Positions 5,712-19,621 are shown, counted from the stretch's first letter. The stretch: DNA of 64,000 nucleotides from an uncultured Veillonellaceae bacterium (GCA_963805085.1 CAWDTA010000002.1:864001-928000); one strand, 5' to 3'. Numbers and translations are program-made. Notes: generated from the letters alone by a model not told the origin.

Positions 5712-6818
5712 ATGAGTAATTTAGAAGTAGGTATCGTTGGATTACCTAACGTTGGCAAGAGTACACTGTTTAATGCGATAACAAAAGCTGGTGCTGAGGC
5801 GGCCAATTATCCGTTCTGTACTATTGAACCGAATGTTGGGGTCGTAGATGTACCAGATCCTCGTTTAGAGGTATTAAGCGACATGAACAGTGCGAGAAGA
5901 ATTGTTCCAGCATCCATCCGTTTCGTGGATATTGCAGGCCTTGTAAAAGGTGCAGCACAAGGGGAAGGTTTGGGCAATAAATTCTTGTCGCACATTCGTC
6001 AAGTAGATGCGGTTGCGCAAGTAATTCGTTGTTTTATTGATGAGAATATTACACATGTTGAAGGAAATATCGATCCATTGCGAGATATCGAAATCATCAA
6101 TACTGAATTGTGCTTAGCTGATCTGGAATCCGTTGAAAAACGTATGGAACGTTCTCAAAAAATGGTGAAAAGCGGCGATAAAAAAGCAAAAGTAGAAATG
6201 GATTTACTGACCCGCATTAAAGACATGTTAGGTGAGGCATTGCCAGCTCGGCGTGTAGAAATGAATGAAGATGAATTATTAATCGTTCGCGATTTAAATC
6301 TTTTAACTTTAAAACCGATTCTTTTCGTAGCAAATGTTGCGGAAGATGAAGTAGCAACTGCTGAAGCAGAAAATGCCTACGTACAAAAAGTAAAAGAATA
6401 TGCAAAACACGAGGGGGCAGAAGTCATCGTTGTTTCTGCAAAAGTAGAGTCTGAAATTGCTGAACTTGGTGATGAAGATGCGAAAGACTTCTTAGCAGAA
6501 CTAGGCTTAGAACAATCTGGTTTGGATAAATTAATCAAGGCTTCTTTCAAATTATTAGGACTGATCACGTTCTTAACTGCTGGGGTGCAAGAGGTCCACG
6601 CTTGGACAATCACAGAAGGTACCAAAGCACCAGAAGCTGGTGGTAAAATCCATAGTGATATCGAACGTGGTTTTATCCGAGCAGAAATTGTCTCTTACGA
6701 TGACCTGATTGCCGCTGGCAGTCAAAATGCAGCAAAAGAAAAAGGACAAGTTCGTCTTGAAGGTAAAGAATATATCATGAAAGACGGCGATGTAACGTAT
6801 TTCCGTTTTAATGTTTGA
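5712..6818 (+). CDS. ychF: Redox-regulated ribosome-binding ATPase YchF
   Basis: GIVGLPNVGKST, ANYPFCTIEPN, DIAGLV, C-terminal EGKEY..DGD..FRFNV. Confidence 0.98.
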   Translation: MSNLEVGIVGLPNVGKSTLFNAITKAGAEAANYPFCTIEPNVGVVDVPDPRLEVLSDMNSARRIVPASIRFVDIAGLVKGAAQGEGLGNKFLSHIRQVDAVAQVIRCFIDENITHVEGNIDPLRDIEIINTELCLADLESVEKRMERSQKMVKSGDKKAKVEMDLLTRIKDMLGEALPARRVEMNEDELLIVRDLNLLTLKPILFVANVAEDEVATAEAENAYVQKVKEYAKHEGAEVIVVSAKVESEIAELGDEDAKDFLAELGLEQSGLDKLIKASFKLLGLITFLTAGVQEVHAWTITEGTKAPEAGGKIHSDIERGFIRAEIVSYDDLIAAGSQNAAKEKGQVRLEGKEYIMKDGDVTYFRFNV

Positions 6819-6838
6819 TTTCAATCTTATATAATTTT

Positions 6839-6866
6839 AAAGACCTGCTATATTAGCAGGTCTTTT
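6839..6866 (+). terminator. Intrinsic terminator after ychF
   Basis: aaagacctgcta/tagcaggtcttt plus T run. Confidence 0.8.
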
Positions 6867-6942
6867 GTGTTATTATAAAGCTATTATTGATGATGCCACT
6901 TTTTTTGCGATACGATAGATATATTCTTTGGGGGATGATTTT

Positions 6943-8304
6943 ATGTCACAAGCAAGATTGGTATTTTTGGCGGTATTAACTACTTCTTTTATTGGGCCGT
7001 TTATGGGGAGTGCTATTAATTTGGCAATTCCAGCAATGGGGGAAACGTTTGGTGCAAATGCAAATGTGCTTAGTTGGGTTGTAACCGCTTATTTGCTTGG
7101 GTCGGTAATGGTGATGCTACCCATTGGGCGGCTTGCGGATATCATTGGGCGTAAAAAAGTCTATACACTAGGCGTAACTTTATTGATCGTGTTTACTTTA
7201 TTAGCTGGCTTTTCCTGGTCAGTTGAACTGTTGATTCTATTTCGTTTGATTCAGGGAATGGCCACAGCGATGATTTTTAGTACTGGGATGGCGATGATTA
7301 TCTCTGTTCACAAACTATCAGAGCGAGGGAGAGTAATTGGTTTTTCCGCGGCATCTACATATATCGGATTATCGCTAGGACCAATGCTCGGTGGGCTAGT
7401 GACACATTATATTGGTTGGCGTAGTATTTTTTTTATTACCGCAATCGTATTGGGCGTTAGTTTACTAGCAATCATCAGAGTCAAAGAAGAATGGTTTGGA
7501 GCCAAGGGCGAAACGTTTGATATAAGAGGAAGTGTTTGTTATATCATTGCGAGTCCGGCAATACTGTACGGCTGTTCGACGATTGTTACGGTAGGCTATG
7601 CGAAATATAGTTTAGTGGGTGGATTGCTGCTCTTTGCAATGTTTGTTAGAAGGCAACTCAATTGTCCGTCTCCCATTTTTGATGTAAAGCTTTTTCGTGG
7701 AAATACAGTATTTGCAATGTCAAATGTAGCGGCAATGATTAATTATAGTGCGACCTTTGCGATCGGTTTCATCTTATCGCTCTATCTACAGTTGATTCGT
7801 GGTTTTGATGCGCCAACAGCTGGCATGATTTTACTGATTCAGCCAATTATGATGGCACTATTTTCACCAAAAGCAGGGGCCTTGTCGGACAAGAATGATC
7901 CACAAATTGTGGCTTCTATTGGGATGGGCTTAAATACATTAGGTCTTATTTTCTTTGCTTTTATCAATACGGATACGCCAATTGTGCTCATTGGGCTTAA
8001 TCTTATGCTAATCGGGTTAGGGTTTGCCCTCTTTTCTTCACCTAATAATAATGCGATTATGGGGGCGGTCACACCAAAGTATTATGGTGTGGCAGCGTCG
8101 GCATTATCGGTTATGCGGCTCGCCGGGCAAGCAATTAGTATGGCAATTGTGACCTTTGTGTTATCAGTTTATGCGCTAGATACCATATCACCAGCGTATT
8201 TAAGCAATTTGTTGGTTGGTTTTCGTCAGATTTTTTTGATCTTTACCTTACTTTGTACAATCGGAACGATGGCTTCATTTGCCAGAGGAAAGAGAAAAAC
8301 CTAA
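6943..8304 (+). CDS. MFS transporter, DHA2 (EmrB/QacA-like)
   Basis: GRLADIIGRKK motif A, WVVTAYLL, GPMLGG, WRSIFF; about 14 hydrophobic segments. Confidence 0.88.
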   Translation: MSQARLVFLAVLTTSFIGPFMGSAINLAIPAMGETFGANANVLSWVVTAYLLGSVMVMLPIGRLADIIGRKKVYTLGVTLLIVFTLLAGFSWSVELLILFRLIQGMATAMIFSTGMAMIISVHKLSERGRVIGFSAASTYIGLSLGPMLGGLVTHYIGWRSIFFITAIVLGVSLLAIIRVKEEWFGAKGETFDIRGSVCYIIASPAILYGCSTIVTVGYAKYSLVGGLLLFAMFVRRQLNCPSPIFDVKLFRGNTVFAMSNVAAMINYSATFAIGFILSLYLQLIRGFDAPTAGMILLIQPIMMALFSPKAGALSDKNDPQIVASIGMGLNTLGLIFFAFINTDTPIVLIGLNLMLIGLGFALFSSPNNNAIMGAVTPKYYGVAASALSVMRLAGQAISMAIVTFVLSVYALDTISPAYLSNLLVGFRQIFLIFTLLCTIGTMASFARGKRKT

Positions 8305-10880: not shown

Positions 10881-11678
10881 TTAGATAATTTCATCTAAAG
10901 GGTCGAGCTCGATGATTTCAATCCCTTTGCCGCGAAGGAGGGAAATTTCAGTTTCATCAGCGCCTTTATTCGTAATGATGGTTGAAATTTTATCTAGGGA
11001 ACCACTGAGAAAATTATGCTGCTTGCCAATTTTTGAACTGCCAGCTAATACAAAGCAAGGGCCAATGCAACGTTTTAACATCATATCATTGATGGGGGTT
11101 TCTTGCAGTACAGAGGTGGTAATGCCACCGCGAATACTAATACCACCGACGCCAATAAAGGTTTTGTTAGCAGTGATTTTTGTTAATGTATGAATGGCAA
11201 ATTCACCAACCATGGATTGCTTTCTTTCGTAAATTTCGCCACCAGTTAATACGACTTCTACCCGAGGGTCTTTTTCAGCATTAATTGCTTTTCCATTGTT
11301 CGTAATGACAATCACTCGTTTATTGGTCAGGTATTTTAAAATTAGTAAAGCCGTAGAGCTTGAGTTAATAAAGATGGTATCCCCATCGTCAATCAGTGAA
11401 GCTGCATATTTAGCAATCGCATGTTTTTGTAAAATACTTTTTGGCGATAAGGTATCTGGTGCGGGGTCTTCTTTTAAGTTTCCTTCTAATAATTTTGCAC
11501 CACCATGAAATCTCGCGACGATATTTTGTTGTTCAAAGATCTGTAGATCACGACGAATTGTCGTTGGTGATACTTTCATCTCTTCCGCAAGATCATCGAC
11601 TTGTACACTGTTATGCTCTTTTAAACATTTTAAAATATATTGCTGACGTTTAAATACAATGCCTTTGCTCTTTTTCAT
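10881..11678 (-). CDS. DeoR/GlpR transcriptional regulator (UlaR-like)
   Basis: HTH VSPTTIRRDL..RFHGGA; sensor domain K.AIAKYAA..GDTIFI, VITNN; divergent from ulaG. Confidence 0.92.
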   Translation of the reverse strand: MKKSKGIVFKRQQYILKCLKEHNSVQVDDLAEEMKVSPTTIRRDLQIFEQQNIVARFHGGAKLLEGNLKEDPAPDTLSPKSILQKHAIAKYAASLIDDGDTIFINSSSTALLILKYLTNKRVIVITNNGKAINAEKDPRVEVVLTGGEIYERKQSMVGEFAIHTLTKITANKTFIGVGGISIRGGITTSVLQETPINDMMLKRCIGPCFVLAGSSKIGKQHNFLSGSLDKISTIITNKGADETEISLLRGKGIEIIELDPLDEII

Positions 11679-12066: not shown

Positions 12067-13131
12067 ATGAGCAAAGTTAAAGAAATTAGCAGAGAATCAT
12101 GGATTTTAAGCACATTTCCAGAGTGGGGCACTTGGTTAAATGAAGAAATTGAACAAGAAGTAGTTGCGCCTGGAACATTTGCAATGTGGTGGCTAGGATG
12201 CACTGGTATATGGGTAAAATCAGAAGGAAGTGCGAATATTTGCATTGATTTTTGGTGTGGTAGTGGTAAAAGAACCAAAGCAAAACCCAATATGGATCCG
12301 CAACATCAAATGGCCAGAATGTGTGGTGGAAAAAAATTACAACCAAACTTAAGAGTAGCACCATTTGTCCTTGATCCATTTGGCATTAAACAAATTGATG
12401 CGGTATTATCCACTCATTATCATAATGATCATATTGATGTCAATGTTGCTGCAGCAGTTATGCAAAATTGTGCAAGTGATGTTTCCTTTATCGGACCTAG
12501 ATATTGCGTTGAAAAATGGATGGAATGGGGCGTGCCAGCAGAGCGTTGCATTACCGTAAAACCTGGTGATGTAGTAAAAGTAAAAGATATGGAAATCGTA
12601 GCATTAGAATCTTTTGATCGTACAGCTTTGATTACAGCACCACCAGATGGAGATTTAAAAGGTTGGTCACCAGATGATATGGATGAAAAAGCGGTAAACT
12701 ATCTAATCAAAACTCCAGGTGGTAATCTTTATCACAGTGGTGATTCTCATTATTCCAATTATTATGCAAAGCATGGCAATGATTACAAAATTAATGTTGC
12801 ATTAGGTTCTTATGGTGAAAATCCTCGTGGCATTACCGATAAAATGACAGCTTCTGATATTCTTCGTATGGGTGAATCCTTAAATACAGAGGTAGTAATT
12901 CCGTTCCATCATGATATTTGGGCTAATTTCCAAGCTGATCCAGCAGAAATTACGGCTTTATATGAAATGAAAAAACATCGCCTGCAATATAAATTTAAAC
13001 CATTTATCTGGCAAGTTGGTGGAAAATTCGTATTCCCAGCGGATAAAGATAAGAGAGAATATCATTATCCAAGAGGTTTCGAAGATTGCTTTGCAAAAGA
13101 TATTAATCTACCATTCACTAGCTTCTTATAA
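12067..13131 (+). CDS. ulaG: L-ascorbate-6-phosphate lactonase
   Basis: [28 protein letters not shown]; metallo-beta-lactamase motifs THYHNDH and HSGDSH. Confidence 0.97.
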
Positions 13132-13245
13132 GACTGTATAAAGCTTTAATGGATACTGCATTAAAATTCGGTTTGTGATCTCTTTTAGATTTTGCAAACC
13201 GTATTTGTCGAATTATTTGAAAATTGAAAATAGGTGGCGAATTAT

Positions 13246-13680
13246 ATGTTTCAAAAATTAATTAAAACGAAACGATATTCCTTCCATAAAGGTTTTGCAA
13301 CGTGGGAAGAAGCTGTTAGAGCGGCTTGTCAACCACTACTTGCTGATAAAACAATCGAACCAGAGTATCCAGATGCGATTATTGGCAAAGTAAAAGAACT
13401 TGGACCATATATCGTCATTGCCCCTAATATCTGCATTCCTCATGCGCAAGAAGGCGTAGGGGTAAATGATACGGCAATTTGTTTTATGAAAACAGAGGAA
13501 CCAGTTCATTTCAGTGATGACCCTAATTATGATGCTAAGTTGTTTTTTGTACTAGCTTCTGTTGATAATACAATCCATTTAGAAAACCTTTGTGAGTTAT
13601 CAGAGTTGTTATCAGATGAAGAAATTGTGGAAAAATTGTTAGCGGCAAAATCCGTAGAAGACTTAAAAGAGTTACCTTGA
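13246..13680 (+). CDS. ulaC: PTS ascorbate EIIA
   Basis: WEEAVR..GPYIVIAPNICIPHA (phospho-His). Confidence 0.88.
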   Translation: MFQKLIKTKRYSFHKGFATWEEAVRAACQPLLADKTIEPEYPDAIIGKVKELGPYIVIAPNICIPHAQEGVGVNDTAICFMKTEEPVHFSDDPNYDAKLFFVLASVDNTIHLENLCELSELLSDEEIVEKLLAAKSVEDLKELP

Positions 13681-13735
13681 TAATAAAAAATTATAATCCG
13701 AGGTTTAAAATCGCAATTATAGGAGGTATACACAT

Positions 13736-15193
13736 ATGGAATTTCTAATGGTTGTTTGGGAATTTTTCCAGAACAACGTATTAACAAAACCTCAATTCTT
13801 CGTCGGTCTAATTGTATTTGTCGGTTATTTATTATTACAAAAACCAATTTATGAAGCACTTGCTGGGTTCATAAAAGCGGTTGTTGGCTATATGATATTG
13901 ATGGTAGCATCTGGTGGATTGGTTGGTAATTTCCGTCCAGTACTTGTAGGTTTAAAGGATAGATTTGATTTATCTGCAGCGGTTATTGATCCATATTTTG
14001 GTCAAGCAGCAGCGCAAGCATCGGTTGAAAGTGTTGGACGATCATTCTCAATGATGATGCTCGTACTATTAATTGCATTTTCATTTAACTTGTTACTTGT
14101 GTTATTTAGAAGATATACAAAAATCCGTACCCTGTTCATTACTGGTCACGTAATGGTACAACAATCCTCTACAGCTTTATGGCTCGTGCTTTTTTGTTTT
14201 CCTCAACTACAAGATGCTGGAGTAGTCGTGATGCTGGGAATCTTACTTGGCACGTACTGGTCAGTGGCCTCCAATCTTACGGTTGAACCTTGTCAAAAGT
14301 TAACGGAAGGTGGCGGTTTTGCGACAGGTCATCAACAAATGTTTGGTATTTGGTTCGTATCCAAAATCGCTGGTAAAATCGGTGATAAAAAGAAATCGAT
14401 TGAAAGTTTAAAATTACCTGGTTTCTTATCGATTTTCAATGAAAACGTTGTAGCAACTGGTATTCTAATGTTATTTTTCTTTGGTGCGATTATCACAATT
14501 TTAGGCCCAGATATGATGCATAAAATTGATAAAAGCTTTGCTACAGAGCAGAATTTTGCGTTCTATATTGTTGAGAAATCCTTTAACTTCTCAGTTTATT
14601 TAACAATCTTACAATTAGGGGTAAGAATGTTCGTATCGGAATTAACAGAATCTTTCCAAGGAATTTCCAACAAAATTCTTCCAGGTTCAATGCCGGCTGT
14701 TGACTGTGCGGCTACGTATGGCTTTGGTCATCCTAATGCAGTTACAATCGGGTTCTTATTTGGTGCACTCGGTCAATTCACAGCAATCATCGGATTACTT
14801 GTATTTCAAAGTCCTATCCTGATCATCAGTGGATTCGTACCGTTGTTCTTCGATAATGCAACTTTTGCTGTATTTGCGAACCGATTAGGTGGGATCAAAG
14901 CTGCCGTCATTATCACTTACTTCTCCGGTATGACGCAAGTTCTTGGTGGTGCCTTCGCTGCTTACTTCTTTATGACTGGTAAGTTCGGTGGGTGGCATGG
15001 TAACTTTGACTGGGATACGATTTGGCCAGCAATTGGTGTGATCATGAAATATGGTCAATATGTTGGGGTAGCAGCTGTGGTTATTTTATTACTTGCAATT
15101 CCACAAATTCTATATCGTCAAAACAGAGATACCTATTTCTTAATCGCGGAAGATTATGATAAATATCTTGAGGTAAAAGGCGAAAAAGAATAA
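13736..15193 (+). CDS. ulaA: PTS ascorbate EIIC
   Basis: FITGHVMVQQ, GHQQMFG, QLGVRMFV.EL..SFQGIS, PAVDCA, GFVPLFFDNA. Confidence 0.95.
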   Translation: MEFLMVVWEFFQNNVLTKPQFFVGLIVFVGYLLLQKPIYEALAGFIKAVVGYMILMVASGGLVGNFRPVLVGLKDRFDLSAAVIDPYFGQAAAQASVESVGRSFSMMMLVLLIAFSFNLLLVLFRRYTKIRTLFITGHVMVQQSSTALWLVLFCFPQLQDAGVVVMLGILLGTYWSVASNLTVEPCQKLTEGGGFATGHQQMFGIWFVSKIAGKIGDKKKSIESLKLPGFLSIFNENVVATGILMLFFFGAIITILGPDMMHKIDKSFATEQNFAFYIVEKSFNFSVYLTILQLGVRMFVSELTESFQGISNKILPGSMPAVDCAATYGFGHPNAVTIGFLFGALGQFTAIIGLLVFQSPILIISGFVPLFFDNATFAVFANRLGGIKAAVIITYFSGMTQVLGGAFAAYFFMTGKFGGWHGNFDWDTIWPAIGVIMKYGQYVGVAAVVILLLAIPQILYRQNRDTYFLIAEDYDKYLEVKGEKE

Positions 15194-15243
15194 GTAATAG
15201 CTAGTTGTATAAATATTACAAATTTAAAAATGAGGTGTTCATT

Positions 15244-15537
15244 ATGTTAAAAGTAATTGCTGCCTGCGGTAGTGGGATGGGTTCAAGTCAGATTATAAAA
15301 ATGAAATTAGAAAAAGTATTTAAGAAACTTGGCATTGAGGCAAGTATTTATCATACCAACGTTGGTGATGCAAAATCACAAGCTGGTAATTATGATGTAG
15401 TTGTTTGTTCTGAATCATTGATTGGAACATTTACCAATGCATCCGCAAAAGGAATTACGGTAATCGGTCTTAAAAATTTATTGTCAGAAAAAGAAATTGA
15501 AGAAAAAGTAACTGAAAATATCGTAAATAAACAATAA
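15244..15537 (+). CDS. ulaB: PTS ascorbate EIIB
   Basis: ACGSGMGSS phospho-Cys loop. Confidence 0.92.
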   Translation: MLKVIAACGSGMGSSQIIKMKLEKVFKKLGIEASIYHTNVGDAKSQAGNYDVVVCSESLIGTFTNASAKGITVIGLKNLLSEKEIEEKVTENIVNKQ

Positions 15538-15606
15538 AATAGACAGTTTGAATAATGGGAAAATAGAAATATTTTCCCATTGTTTGGAGTTGGGAGTGTT
15601 TTTAGT

Positions 15607-16638
15607 ATGAAAATAGAAAAGAAATTTTTAACGAAATTGCATAGATGTTACGCGACAAGCAGTACAGTGATTGATGGCGAAAAGAAAATCTTATTTGCAA
15701 CAGAAGGCGAAGGCCCATGTTACATGTACTCCGGGGCTGAATTTGAGCAGTCTACTGTTTGGGACGGTCCTGGCGGTACGATGTCTATCGTTGCTGTTCC
15801 TGGTAAAAACGGTGATTTTTTAGCAGTGCAAAACTTTTTTCCAACGTTTCAATCGGAGAAGGCAACCATAGTTTGGGGTAAGCCACAAGCGGATGGTAAG
15901 TGGCAGGTAAAAACATTGTTTAAAATGCCATATATTCATAGATTCGATATTCTTTCGGCGGATGGTGTGAATTATTTTATTGGCTGCACGCTTTGTACCA
16001 GCAAAATAGAAAAAGAAGACTGGTCAGATCCAGGGAAAATCTATGTTGGTGTCATTCCAGAAGATTTGGATGAGCCAATAGAACTTAAGATTATCAAAAC
16101 AGGCATGACCAAGAATCACGGCTATAGCCACGTGATTTGGCATGGTAAAATGGCGGGCATGGTTACTTGTGAAGAGGGGGTATTTGCTGTAACGCCACCG
16201 CAAAAAGCAGGCGAAGCATGGACGATTGAAACAGTGCTTGAGCGTCCAGTCAGTGATATTGCTGTTGTTGATATTGATGGCGACGGCGTGGATGAATTGG
16301 TAACGATTGAGCCATTCCATGGTAATCAATTTTTAATTAACAAGAAAACAGACAAAGATTATCAAGTTGTTTATCAATATCCCGAAAAGATGGAGTTTGG
16401 TCATGTAGTATGGGGTGGTCAGTTAAGAGGCGTGCCAACGATTATTGGTGGACAAAGAAGACATGCAAAGGATTTGTTCTATATTCAATATAAAAATGGT
16501 GAGTATGTAAAAACGACAATCGAAACAGATATCGGACCTAGTAATGTTGCCGTGATCACTGATAAAGATCATGATATTATCATTTCTGCTAACCGTGAAA
16601 TCGGTGAAGCTGTTTTATATTTGGTTACTGATAAATGA
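15607..16638 (+). CDS. Hypothetical cytoplasmic beta-propeller protein with an FG-GAP-like repeat
   Basis: 343 aa, beta-rich, no signal peptide; DIAVVDIDGDGVDELV loop; His motifs IHRF, NHGY, EPFHGN, GHVVW. Confidence 0.8.
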   Translation: MKIEKKFLTKLHRCYATSSTVIDGEKKILFATEGEGPCYMYSGAEFEQSTVWDGPGGTMSIVAVPGKNGDFLAVQNFFPTFQSEKATIVWGKPQADGKWQVKTLFKMPYIHRFDILSADGVNYFIGCTLCTSKIEKEDWSDPGKIYVGVIPEDLDEPIELKIIKTGMTKNHGYSHVIWHGKMAGMVTCEEGVFAVTPPQKAGEAWTIETVLERPVSDIAVVDIDGDGVDELVTIEPFHGNQFLINKKTDKDYQVVYQYPEKMEFGHVVWGGQLRGVPTIIGGQRRHAKDLFYIQYKNGEYVKTTIETDIGPSNVAVITDKDHDIIISANREIGEAVLYLVTDK

Positions 16639-16664
16639 CTTTAGGCTAAAGGGGATTGAAAAGC

Positions 16665-17357
16665 ATGTTAGAAGAGTTGAAACAAAAAGTTTATGAAGCC
16701 AATATGTTATTGCCGAAATATGGGCTGATCACCTTTACTTGGGGCAATGTTTCTGCGATTGATAGAGAATCAGGTCTGTTTGTGATTAAACCATCGGGTG
16801 TAGAGTATGACAAAATGGCAGCAGAAGATATGATTGTCGTTGATCTGAATGGTAACGTTATCGAAGGAAGATTAAAACCATCTTCCGATACACCGACACA
16901 TTTAAAATTGTATCAAGAATTTAAGAATATTGGTGGTGTTGTCCATACGCATTCACGCTGGGCAACAGTTTTTGCCCAAGCGGGTTTTGCTATTAAGGCT
17001 TATGGAACAACACAAGCAGATTATTTTCATGGCACGATTCCTTGTACGGAGGCGATGACGAAAGTGGCGATTGAAGGCGAATATGAGTATAATACGGGAA
17101 ATAGTATCGTGGATACATTTAAAGAAAGTAACCCTGATCATATGCCAGCAGTTTTAGTGAGAAATCATGGACCTTTCACTTGGGGCAAAGATGCCTTTGA
17201 AGCTGTGCATAACGCAGTAGTATTGGAAGAAGTGGCAATGATCGCGTTCAATACGGAGTTACTAAGTCAGGGGAAGGTAGCGTCGATGCCAAAAATGTTG
17301 TTAGATAAACATTTTTGGCGTAAGCATGGGCCAAATGCTTATTACGGACAAAAATAA
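16665..17357 (+). CDS. araD: L-ribulose-5-phosphate 4-epimerase (AraD/UlaF)
   Basis: [37 protein letters not shown]. Confidence 0.95.
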
Positions 17358-17372
17358 GGATAGGTACTAAAC

Positions 17373-17423
17373 CTTGCTCGCTTTGCTAGTCTCGCTGTTT
17401 TTGTGGGCAAGCAGAGCGAGCAA
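17373..17423. repeat. GC-rich intra-operon hairpin
   Basis: ttgctcgctttgct...agcagagcgagcaa between araD and ulaE, without a U-tail. Confidence 0.5.
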
Positions 17424-17461
17424 CTCTTTAATCAGATTTATTTCGACGAAGGAAGTGAATG

Positions 17462-18307
17462 ATGATGAAAAATTATATGCTAGGGCTATATGAAAAATCC
17501 ATGCCAGAAACATTGACTTGGGAGGAAAAATTACAAGAGGCGAAAGTGGCCAATTTTGATTTTGTTGAAATGAGTATCGATGAAACTGATGCAAAATTGG
17601 CAAGGTTAGATATGACAAAAACTGAGAAAAAGCAGCTCTGTGAAGTGATGGAGACCGTTGGGATTCCCATTAGAACGATTTGCTTAAGTGGTCATCGTAA
17701 ATATCCGTTAGGCAGTAATGATGCAGAGACAAGGGTGAGAAGTTTAGAAATTATGGAAAAGGCAATCGATTTAGCCTGCGATTTAGGCGTAAGAATTATT
17801 CAACTTGCTGGCTATGATGTTTATTATGAAGAAGCTTCTGTGCAAACAAGAGCAGCGTTTGAAGAAAACCTTGCCAAATGTACCTTGATGGCAGCTAAAA
17901 AAGGTGTGCTATTGGGATTTGAAACAATGGAAACCGAGTTTATGAATACCATGAAGAAAGCAATGTATTATGTAAATAAAATAGATTCGCCGTATCTCCA
18001 TGTATATCCCGATGCAGGAAACCTTACGAATGCTGCAATGATGTATCAAACCGATCTTTTTGATGATATCAAAAGTGGTGCTGGACATATCGTTGCCTGT
18101 CATTTAAAAGAAACTGTCCCAGGAAAATATAGAGAAATACCATTTGGTTCAGGGCATGTTGATTTTAAGGCAATCGTTGATACTACTTGGACATTCGGTG
18201 TAAGGACGTATGTGGCAGAGTTTTGGTATACGGGCAGTGAATCGTGGCAAAGTGATTTAAAAGAGGTAAATCATTTTCTTTCGGCAAATTTTTTTGATAA
18301 AGTTTGA
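17462..18307 (+). CDS. ulaE: L-xylulose-5-phosphate 3-epimerase
   Basis: LGLYEKSM, FDFVEMSIDETD, CLSGHRKYPLGS, IQLAGYDVYYE. Confidence 0.95.
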   Translation: MMKNYMLGLYEKSMPETLTWEEKLQEAKVANFDFVEMSIDETDAKLARLDMTKTEKKQLCEVMETVGIPIRTICLSGHRKYPLGSNDAETRVRSLEIMEKAIDLACDLGVRIIQLAGYDVYYEEASVQTRAAFEENLAKCTLMAAKKGVLLGFETMETEFMNTMKKAMYYVNKIDSPYLHVYPDAGNLTNAAMMYQTDLFDDIKSGAGHIVACHLKETVPGKYREIPFGSGHVDFKAIVDTTWTFGVRTYVAEFWYTGSESWQSDLKEVNHFLSANFFDKV

Positions 18308-18402: not shown

Positions 18403-19377
18403 TTGAGTAAAGTAAAAAAGATAGGTGTGTTAACAAGCGGTGGAGATTCCCCAGGAATGAATGCAGTTGTCAGGGCTGTTGTTAGAAGTGCAAAGGAATT
18501 TGGTTTAGAAGTAGTCGGTATTTGTCGAGGCTACAATGGCTTAATGAATGGTGATGTGATTAAGCTTGACAATCGATCCGTTGGTGACATTATCCAGCGT
18601 GGCGGTACGATGCTTTATACGGCACGTTGTTTAGAATTTATGGAACTTGCTGGACAAGAGCAGGGCTATAAAACTGCGCAGAAGCTTGGGATTGATGGGC
18701 TGGTTGTCGTTGGCGGAGATGGATCGTTTCGGGGGGCTGCGGCACTCAGTAAACTTGGACTCCCGACAGTGGGGATTCCTGGTACGATTGACAATGATAT
18801 TGTTTGTACCGATTACTCGATTGGTTTTGACACTGCCTGTAATATAGCAATGGAAGCAGTAGATAGATTGAGAGATACGACGCAAAGTCATGAAAAATGT
18901 AGTTTGGTAGAAGTTATGGGCCGGCACGCTGGACACTTAGCATTAAATGTTGGCGTGGCAACTGGAGCGACAGCAGTGTTGATACCAGAAAAAGAATATG
19001 ATCTAAAAAGAGATATTTCTGAGAAAATTTTAGCGGCGCAAAAATCCGGTAAAACGCATCACATTATTATTGTTGCGGAAGGCTGTAAAGACAATGTGGC
19101 TGAAATTGGCAAACAAATAGAGGCTGATACTGGCATTAGCTCACGCTTAACAGTCCTTGGACATATCCAACGTGGTGGTGCGCCAACCGTAATTGATCGG
19201 GTAAATGCAACTAAAATGGGCTATCATGCCGTAGAACTATTAAAAGAAGGTATCGGTAATCGGTTAGTTTCAATTAAAGATGACCATGTTGTAGACTTTG
19301 ACATCAAAGAAGGTCTAGCGATGAAAAAATCGATTGATGAAAAACTCTATAATGTTTGCCGTATCGTATCAAAATAA
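18403..19377 (+). CDS. pfkA: ATP-dependent 6-phosphofructokinase
   Basis: TSGGDSPGMNA, GGDGS, PGTIDND, EVMGR, LGHIQRGG. Confidence 0.96.
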   Translation: MSKVKKIGVLTSGGDSPGMNAVVRAVVRSAKEFGLEVVGICRGYNGLMNGDVIKLDNRSVGDIIQRGGTMLYTARCLEFMELAGQEQGYKTAQKLGIDGLVVVGGDGSFRGAAALSKLGLPTVGIPGTIDNDIVCTDYSIGFDTACNIAMEAVDRLRDTTQSHEKCSLVEVMGRHAGHLALNVGVATGATAVLIPEKEYDLKRDISEKILAAQKSGKTHHIIIVAEGCKDNVAEIGKQIEADTGISSRLTVLGHIQRGGAPTVIDRVNATKMGYHAVELLKEGIGNRLVSIKDDHVVDFDIKEGLAMKKSIDEKLYNVCRIVSK

Positions 19378-19428: not shown

Positions 19429-19621
19429 GTTTGCAGCTAGTAGTTTGACATTTTTTATAGTTTCGCTTATTATAAATTGCTTAGCAAGATGACTCAAGGC
19501 GAATATGGTGTAAAAATCTTTGCTAGGGGATTAAAACCCTAGCATTTATTATGGACTTCATGTTAGTAGATACTAACATAGTTATATTTGATGAATTTAT
19601 ATAAAAGGAGTAACAAGATTT

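Follow-up and report, generated by a model that had tools for sequence, protein, structure and literature searches.

A conserved FG-GAP-type protein as the probable replacement of the decarboxylase UlaD in L-ascorbate operons

Introduction

How is 3-keto-L-gulonate-6-phosphate decarboxylated in an L-ascorbate operon that holds no gene for the decarboxylase UlaD (SgbH)? The question is raised by a 64,000-nucleotide stretch of DNA from an uncultured Veillonellaceae bacterium (GCA_963805085.1, CAWDTA010000002.1:864001-928000), referred to here as the window. The plus strand of the window carries, in this order, ulaG, the genes for the components EIIA, EIIC and EIIB of a phosphotransferase system (PTS), an open reading frame (ORF) of 343 amino acids (aa) named PROP here, araD/ulaF, ulaE and pfkA, and a DeoR-family regulator diverges upstream. 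The assignments, made on the ORFs with Pfam and NCBIfam, agree with the order ulaG-ulaC-ulaA-ulaB-ORF-araD/ulaF-ulaE given in a preliminary description of the locus. The parallel drawn there with E. coli also holds: in the E. coli order ulaABC-D-E-F, UlaD follows the PTS genes as the ORF does in the window, so that PROP stands where the decarboxylase gene would be expected, after the PTS genes and before the epimerases. PROP is probably a cytoplasmic enzyme that carries out the UlaD/SgbH reaction of L-ascorbate catabolism on an unrelated fold, a role for which its operon position and its exclusive alternation with UlaD argue.

The ula route is textbook biochemistry. Operons of the PROP type are read as incomplete by automatic annotation, so that ascorbate would not support growth in metabolic models built for Clostridia and Negativicutes. 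A search of open-access literature text found no paper in which 3-keto-L-gulonate or ulaG is connected with the PROP family, with FG-GAP or with a propeller.

Absence of UlaD from PROP-bearing genomes

No UlaD was found among the ORFs of the window, as the preliminary description had stated, and no ulaD or sgbH was found elsewhere in the genome (an assembly of 4.2 Mb in 5 contigs, 83% complete), which has only an hxlA-hxlB pair. A six-frame search of the whole assembly with PF00215 gave one match, on contig C4 (403839-404435). The gene scores 206.6 bits with the HxlA model TIGR03128 (cut-off 200) and 118 bits with the UlaD model NF009832 (cut-off 250), and it adjoins HxlB. Since it lies under the UlaD cut-off and abuts HxlB, it belongs to the ribulose-monophosphate pair and not to the ula pathway. 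It was rejected as the missing UlaD on these scores and this pairing, and 29 of the 37 other carriers of PROP are without such a gene. The same search of the 83%-complete assembly detected no pyrF (orotidine monophosphate decarboxylase), for which an assembly gap or pyrimidine auxotrophy could be the reason.

The absence of UlaD is shared by the other carriers. Scoring with NF009832 at the cut-off of 250 bits showed no UlaD in any of the 47 PROP-bearing genomes checked. Among the 37 genomes behind the PROP-anchored loci described below, none exceeds the cut-off, 29 have no match at E <= 0.001 and 8 have weak matches of 23-133 bits. Three PROP genomes of a phylum sample likewise have no UlaD over the cut-off, six of a Clostridia sample have no match, and the genome G193, which carries a cluster of another layout, scores 30.8 bits. 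Five of the weak matches in carriers are HxlA-HxlB pairs, two from Propionispira are a KGPDC/HPS-like gene, and two others score 23-24 bits. In Propionispira arboris (locus L042, G003:C9, 349-2130), the KGPDC/HPS-like gene stands behind a Zn-dependent dehydrogenase and a ribulose-phosphate-epimerase-like fragment. From the contig numbering, this stretch would belong to the ula contig, ~79 kb from the operon.

Alternation of PROP and UlaD

A UlaG-anchored scan of metagenomes, with an alignment headed by E. coli UlaG, kept 80 loci. UlaD is present in 47 of these (42 enterobacterial-like and 5 distant), PROP in 12 and neither in 21, and the two genes occur together in 0 of the 59 loci that hold either. 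The 21 loci with neither gene (median length 6.5 kb) are truncated operons, since UlaE is missing from every one of them. PROP was not found in the E. coli chromosome. Routine co-occurrence of PROP homologues with ulaD, which the preliminary description had named as an observation that would speak against its proposal, was thus seen neither in these loci nor in the 37 carrier genomes.

The alternation is not the trace of one old split. At least 4 changes of the UlaD/PROP label are required on a 91-row UlaG tree, against a mean of 30.5 for shuffled labels. Well-supported branches force 2 of these changes, and one well-supported clade mixes L122 and L126, which have UlaD, with L128 and L135, which have PROP. 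The anti-correlation with ulaD across ula operons, suggested as a check in the preliminary description, is therefore borne out, with several switches on the tree.

Unbiased genome samples were also analysed. Among 301 genomes of the phylum of the window, UlaG exceeds its cut-off in 4 and PROP is present in 5, namely all 4 UlaG-positive genomes, on the same contig as UlaG, and G193. Among 350-351 genomes of Clostridia, UlaG exceeds its cut-off in 8 and PROP is present in 9, namely all 8 UlaG-positive genomes and G438. Together, 12 of the 12 UlaG-positive genome rows have PROP, two of the rows (G358 and G227) having identical coordinates and scores and being probably one genome. G253, G266, G088 and G103 have UlaG-like paralogues whose scores of 199-248 bits stay below the cut-off of 306 and which are probably a different lactonase/hydrolase subfamily; neither PROP nor UlaD was found in G253 and G266.

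Neighbourhoods of PROP

A scan of one genome per species gave 38 PROP loci with 46-93% identity, one of which is cut, leaving 37 informative. The loci come from Massilibacillus, Selenomonadaceae, Propionispira, Pectinatus, ~20 Clostridium, Sarcina, Youngiibacter, Oscillospiraceae, Eisenbergiella and a metagenome-assembled genome (MAG) of Spirochaetaceae. PROP lies beside UlaG, UlaE or AraD in all 37 informative loci (UlaG in 36, UlaE in 36, AraD in 34), and no UlaD- or HxlA-like ORF was found in their flanks, which cover up to 10 kb on each side. In the metagenomes, UlaE is adjacent in 9 of the 12 PROP loci. Within the ula span, 41 of the 49 genome and metagenome loci have no further unassigned ORF of at least 100 aa. 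The extras of the remaining 8 loci are non-recurrent: transketolase/transaldolase, a sulfatase-like gene, a second EIIC, an ABC transporter, SorC regulators and an FGGY kinase. PROP is therefore the only conserved unknown of these operons. Another unknown operon gene as the agent of the step was rejected, none being present in the 41 loci.

PROP is accordingly co-located and co-oriented with ulaG, PTS EIIABC, ulaE and araD/ulaF beside a DeoR-type regulator, as a member of a ula regulon would be. This setting was observed in the window, in the 37 related genome loci, in the 12 metagenome loci and in G154, G227, G282, G492, G515, G525, G539, G566 and G760. G539 has three UlaG and two PROP copies. 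Sarcina ventriculi has two ula operons of the PROP type (L015 and L030), whose PROP proteins are 63% and 68% identical to that of the window.

PROP alternates with the decarboxylase in a second layout as well. G193 is 99% complete and has no UlaG, PTS or UlaD. Its cluster (L141, C19 1633-10705, minus strand) comprises an ApbA/PanE-type keto-acid reductase, a YiaL-family protein (TIGR00022, 152.9 bits), a transporter of the major facilitator superfamily (MFS), a xylose-isomerase-like TIM barrel, an FGGY kinase, a GntR regulator, AraD, UlaE and PROP. In the E. coli operon yiaKLMNO-lyxK-sgbHUE, according to the available excerpt of PMC6958661, a kinase and not UlaG makes 3-keto-L-gulonate-6-phosphate, which SgbH decarboxylates. 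The two units share a keto-acid reductase, a YiaL-family protein, a transporter, an FGGY kinase and epimerases of the UlaE and AraD types. However, G193 has PROP in the place of sgbH, its reductase is of the ApbA/PanE and not the YiaK type, its transporter is of the MFS and not the yiaMNO type, and its regulator is GntR and not IclR. The xylose-isomerase-like TIM barrel, at 6728-7657, is additional. G760, a congener of G193, has PROP in an ordinary operon of the PTS/UlaG type.

Seven other PROP loci without a PTS (L035, L033, L036, L037, L124, L134 and L135) have an FGGY kinase beside UlaG, PROP and UlaE. In the Eisenbergiella locus L035 (10884-14308), an ABC transporter with two permeases and a binding protein lies between PROP and UlaE. 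These loci suggest that ascorbate, or an acid related to it, is taken up without a PTS. The constant partners of PROP are thus a source of 3-keto-L-gulonate-6-phosphate and an enzyme that uses L-xylulose-5-phosphate, which pins the missing step.

The PROP protein and its predicted fold

The start of PROP is most likely ATG 15607, which gives the 343-aa form, because GGGAG lies ~11 nt upstream and the homologues begin at the same MK-x-EKK. Judged by eye from the N-terminus MKIEKKFLTKLHRCYATSS, PROP has no signal peptide, in agreement with the preliminary description, whose four motifs (YIHRF, NHGY, TIEPFHGN and GHVVW) are all in the translation. The FG-GAP-like loop reported there corresponds to one FG-GAP repeat over the Pfam cut-off and one DxDxDG loop. 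This repeat scores 24.5 bits with PF01839 (cut-off 22.1) at residues 216-239, numbered on the 343-aa form, and is the sole Pfam match. PF13517 (VCBS) reaches 18.5 bits, under its cut-off of 26.9, no NCBIfam model matched, and PF00215, NF009831 and NF009832 gave no match at E <= 0.01.

A word-indexed search found 1378 relatives of ~343-346 aa at E <= 1e-3, all named "hypothetical" or "VCBS repeat-containing", and an exhaustive search with a profile yielded 846 cluster representatives, including 347 at E <= 1e-30. Conservation was analysed over 157 sequences comprising orthologues, 50%-cluster representatives, paralogues and the corresponding parts of fusions, with identities among the compared family sequences of 28-93%. 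Y15, H111, H171, H238 and H266 are invariant in all 157, R112, D138, W139, N170, D222, E230 and R284 are kept at 95% or above, and position 217 is D or E throughout. The single DxDxDG loop, D222-I-D224-G-D226-G227 followed by E230, is well kept (D222 in 154, D224 in 140 and D226 in 148 of the 157); in the available excerpt of PMC8023676, the motif is defined as a calcium-binding loop between strands A and B. Such a pattern of conservation is that predicted for an enzyme with a His-rich metal site, not for a binding repeat. The conserved polar residues recur about every 50 positions (Y15, T58, H111-R112, H171, S216-D217, H266 and S312-N313) at the would-be innermost strands of successive blades, which suggests a site at the central channel.

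PROP is placed among the VCBS-type propellers on the combined evidence of FG-GAP/VCBS matches, the DxDxDG loop, neighbours in a protein language model and sub-threshold matches to PF22301 (AUDH_beta_propeller). FG-GAP was matched by 35 of 41 family members at E <= 10, and by 47 of 70 at E <= 1, at which FG-GAP_3 was matched by 49 of 70. The neighbours in the language model are FG-GAP/VCBS proteins, many of which carry PF22301 (at 0.94-0.95). A comparison of the family with itself by hhalign showed weak internal repeats (83-108 against 188-214, E 0.02).

The resemblance to the propeller of aldos-2-ulose dehydratase (AUDH) suggested in the preliminary description stands in part. Besides the language-model neighbours, it is supported by PF22301 matches at E <= 1 in 17 of 70 members (best 4.2e-4) and at E 0.08 in 2 of 41, and those of P0248 and P0255 are collinear over ~150 residues (95-244). 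However, PROP itself has no match to PF22301, no member reaches the Pfam cut-off of 27 bits (at most 19.5 bits in ten members), and the profile match to AUDH (PDB 4a7k) covers 17 residues at the DxDxDG loop only, with E 0.16. A PF22301 search for AUDH-type proteins in 151 genomes and 14 controls gave no match. PROP and the AUDH propeller share the FG-GAP/VCBS repeat signature and the DxDxDG loop, and both would act on keto-sugars. PROP differs as a 343-aa single domain without the further domains of AUDH, which are cupin and lectin domains, and in its predicted substrate and reaction. The VCBS-type superfamily includes the 7-bladed AUDH propeller, according to the excerpt of PMC8023676.

Searches of the PDB gave 0 matches at E <= 10 with the narrower profile (A1) and 7 weak matches, all through the DxDxDG loop, with the wider one (A3). 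The best of these (E 0.0056-0.02) are the PL11 rhamnogalacturonan lyases YesW and YesX (PDB 2z8r and 2zuy), which are matched through their repeated propeller DxDGDG-E loops. The match is limited to a calcium loop of 16-18 residues, and the lyases have ~600 aa with several such loops compared with one in PROP.

Comparison with UlaD/SgbH, the KGPDC of the OMP-decarboxylase suprafamily, shows PROP in the same operon slot, between transporter genes and the UlaE/AraD epimerases, with equal partners (UlaG, or an FGGY kinase, upstream) and a mutually exclusive presence. The predicted reaction is the same and so is the predicted need for a divalent metal. In contrast, PROP has no sequence relation to UlaD/SgbH, a predicted beta-propeller takes the place of the (beta/alpha)8 barrel, and the conserved residues are His-rich.

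Fusions of PROP to other enzymes were also found. A Cof-type HAD phosphatase is fused N-terminally to PROP in 624-aa proteins (P0126, P0271 and P0272), recurrently in Acholeplasma/Paracholeplasma; Cof-like hydrolase genes are often inserted in ula regulons (2011 UlaG paper). In P0273 (636 aa, Bacteroidales MAGs), a 30%-identical PROP paralogue is fused to a tartronate-semialdehyde (2-hydroxy-3-oxopropionate) reductase (NF008592, 441.8 bits against 397). The cluster of P0273 has 163 members, some of which are split into ~332 and 300 aa. The paralogue retains H111, R112, K133, D138, W139, H171, the DxDxDG loop, H238, H266 and R284. The fusion is compatible with small keto-acid chemistry and may point to decarboxylation of another 3-oxo acid.

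Predicted mechanism and alternatives

In the proposed pathway, the PTS would deliver L-ascorbate-6-phosphate and UlaG would open it to 3-keto-L-gulonate-6-phosphate, from which PROP would take C1 off as CO2 to give L-xylulose-5-phosphate, which UlaE and AraD would turn into D-xylulose-5-phosphate. The fold, metal, residue roles, substrate and product of PROP are predictions throughout. PROP would be a beta-propeller of the FG-GAP/VCBS type whose innermost blade strands put H111/R112, H171, D217, H266 and N313 at the central channel, with H238 joining them. Three or four of the invariant His, together with D/E217, would coordinate a divalent metal that would chelate O2 and O3 (the C2 hydroxyl and the C3 keto group) of the substrate and steady the enediolate left on the loss of CO2, which a nearby acid (K133, D138 or Y15) may then protonate. 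The 6-phosphate would be held by R112, R284 and K133, and the DxDxDG loop (D222-G227, with E230) may bind a structural Ca2+ or Mg2+.

The preliminary description had left two roles side by side, replacement of UlaD or diversion of the keto-acid phosphate. The first is favoured because UlaE is kept beside PROP almost everywhere. As a diverting enzyme, PROP would catalyse another reaction on the keto-acid phosphate, such as an AUDH-like dehydration or isomerisation, and open a new branch. The nearest characterised enzyme of the superfamily, matched below threshold, is the AUDH propeller, named as a keto-sugar dehydratase in the excerpt of PMC8023676, and pfkA is attached to the operon in Negativicutes. 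Such a branch is nevertheless improbable: the sole known substrate of UlaE is the decarboxylation product, UlaE and AraD are adjacent at the frequencies given above, and the loss of UlaD wherever PROP is present would be left unexplained. A non-enzymatic propeller for binding, scaffolding or regulation, lectin-like and aiding the PTS or the enzymes, is a very remote prospect. Most FG-GAP/VCBS propellers are binding modules, as far as the excerpt of PMC8023676 goes, and PROP has one recognisable DxDxDG loop only. However, full or nearly full invariance throughout the widely divergent family is seen for four His, one Tyr, two Arg and a number of Asp/Glu residues, no signal peptide was seen by eye, family members are fused to a HAD phosphatase and a tartronate-semialdehyde reductase, and a scaffold would be unable to fill a missing chemical step.

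PROP could instead be an accessory enzyme, for example one that tautomerises or epimerises 3-keto-L-gulonate-6-phosphate in its enol or hydrate form, or a hydrolase of side products, with the decarboxylation occurring spontaneously or by promiscuity of UlaG, UlaE or AraD. In favour of such a role, beta-keto acids decarboxylate without catalysis as a matter of general chemistry, the class II aldolase folds to which AraD belongs include a known decarboxylase model (NF043034, weakly matched here with 57 bits against 250), and family members occur outside the pathway (G438 and the P0273 fusion). It would not predict the strict alternation with UlaD or the replacement of sgbH in the kinase-type cluster, and UlaG, UlaE and AraD of the PROP operons are ordinary high-scoring orthologues, the UlaGs being intermixed with those of the UlaD type on the tree. 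The accessory role is thus considered unlikely, and replacement of UlaD by PROP is preferred.

Several points weigh against replacement. The unaided loss of CO2 from beta-keto acids is slow, but it means that an enzyme is not strictly required. The genome of the window keeps HxlA, a relative of UlaD in the same suprafamily that may have weak promiscuous activity, and the 133-bit KGPDC/HPS-like gene is present in two Propionispira genomes, where it follows a Zn-dehydrogenase in a separate operon. That PROP folds as a propeller, with its His residues clustered, is itself deduced from sequence. The yia-like context of PROP comes from one genome, G193. The exclusivity goes back to a small number of independent events (2-4 switches), the raw counts are inflated by related loci, and near-identical enterobacterial operons make up most of the 47 UlaD loci. 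Finally, G438 has an orphan PROP homologue (L143, C1 10420-11451, 41% identity) in a genome without UlaG or UlaE, among unrelated neighbours (a radical-SAM gene, a nitroreductase, a LacI regulator, an aminotransferase and fumarase), and the PROP family is therefore not strictly tied to the ascorbate pathway.

A wider reading appears plausible on balance, in which PROP, as a VCBS/FG-GAP beta-propeller, represents a new class of metal-dependent decarboxylases of beta-keto acids that displaced UlaD/SgbH several times in the PTS (ula) and kinase (yia-like) routes, and whose reductase-fused paralogues decarboxylate other 3-oxo acids. The lineages concerned would include Clostridia, Negativicutes and Spirochaetes, with species such as C. 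perfringens and C. botulinum. To our knowledge, PROP would be the first decarboxylase with this propeller fold. If true, the replacement of UlaD by PROP closes the pathway hole, assigns a function to >1300 "hypothetical" proteins of gut, soil and pathogenic anaerobes, adds a further case of repeated non-orthologous displacement, and brings enediolate chemistry, elsewhere known from TIM-barrel enzymes, onto a propeller scaffold. The result is a functional prediction for a large unannotated family, directly testable by existing coupled assays.

Genes and signals of the operon

The coordinates of the operon genes are collected in Table 1.

Table 1. Features of the ula operon, in positions of the window
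Feature	Position	Strand	Evidence
DeoR-family regulator (UlaR-like), divergent from ulaG	10881-11678	-	Pfam HTH_DeoR and DeoRC
ulaG, L-ascorbate-6-phosphate lactonase	12067-13131	+	NF008688, 661.3 bits (cut-off 306)
PTS EIIA (ulaC-like)	13234-13680	+	PF00359, 98.6 bits
PTS EIIC (ulaA-like)	13736-15193	+	PF03611 EIIC-GAT, 330 bits; NF006919 ascorbate IIC, 393 bits (cut-off 380)
PTS EIIB (ulaB-like)	15205-15537	+	PF02302, 65.6 bits, from residue 16 of the 110-aa ORF
PROP, ORF without known annotation	15580/15607-16638	+	One FG-GAP repeat; family conservation; comparison of loci
araD/ulaF, L-ribulose-5-phosphate 4-epimerase	16656-17357	+	NF006047, 379.4 bits (cut-off 257)
ulaE, L-xylulose-5-phosphate/L-ribulose-5-phosphate 3-epimerase	17459-18307	+	NF009689, 361.2 bits (cut-off 200)
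pfkA, ATP-dependent 6-phosphofructokinase	18403-19377	+	NF002872, 413.8 bits (cut-off 253)
Terminator-like stem-loop 3' of pfkA	19521-19544	+	Consensus match only

UlaG of the window is 76% identical to E. coli UlaG. The regulator scores under all NCBIfam equivalog cut-offs (112 bits with the UlaR model against 244), and a DeoR homologue has the equivalent position in most related loci. The top NCBIfam match of EIIA is the ascorbate IIA model, under its cut-off. The true start of EIIB is probably ATG 15244, judging from where the PF02302 match begins.

A terminator scan showed no plus-strand terminator-like site in any intergenic gap from ulaG to pfkA, and the promoter and terminator scan gave site counts not above those of shuffled sequence. 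The last gene of the transcription unit is probably pfkA, which also lies directly 3' of ulaE in the Negativicutes relatives L003, L005, L028 and L118 and not in the clostridial loci.

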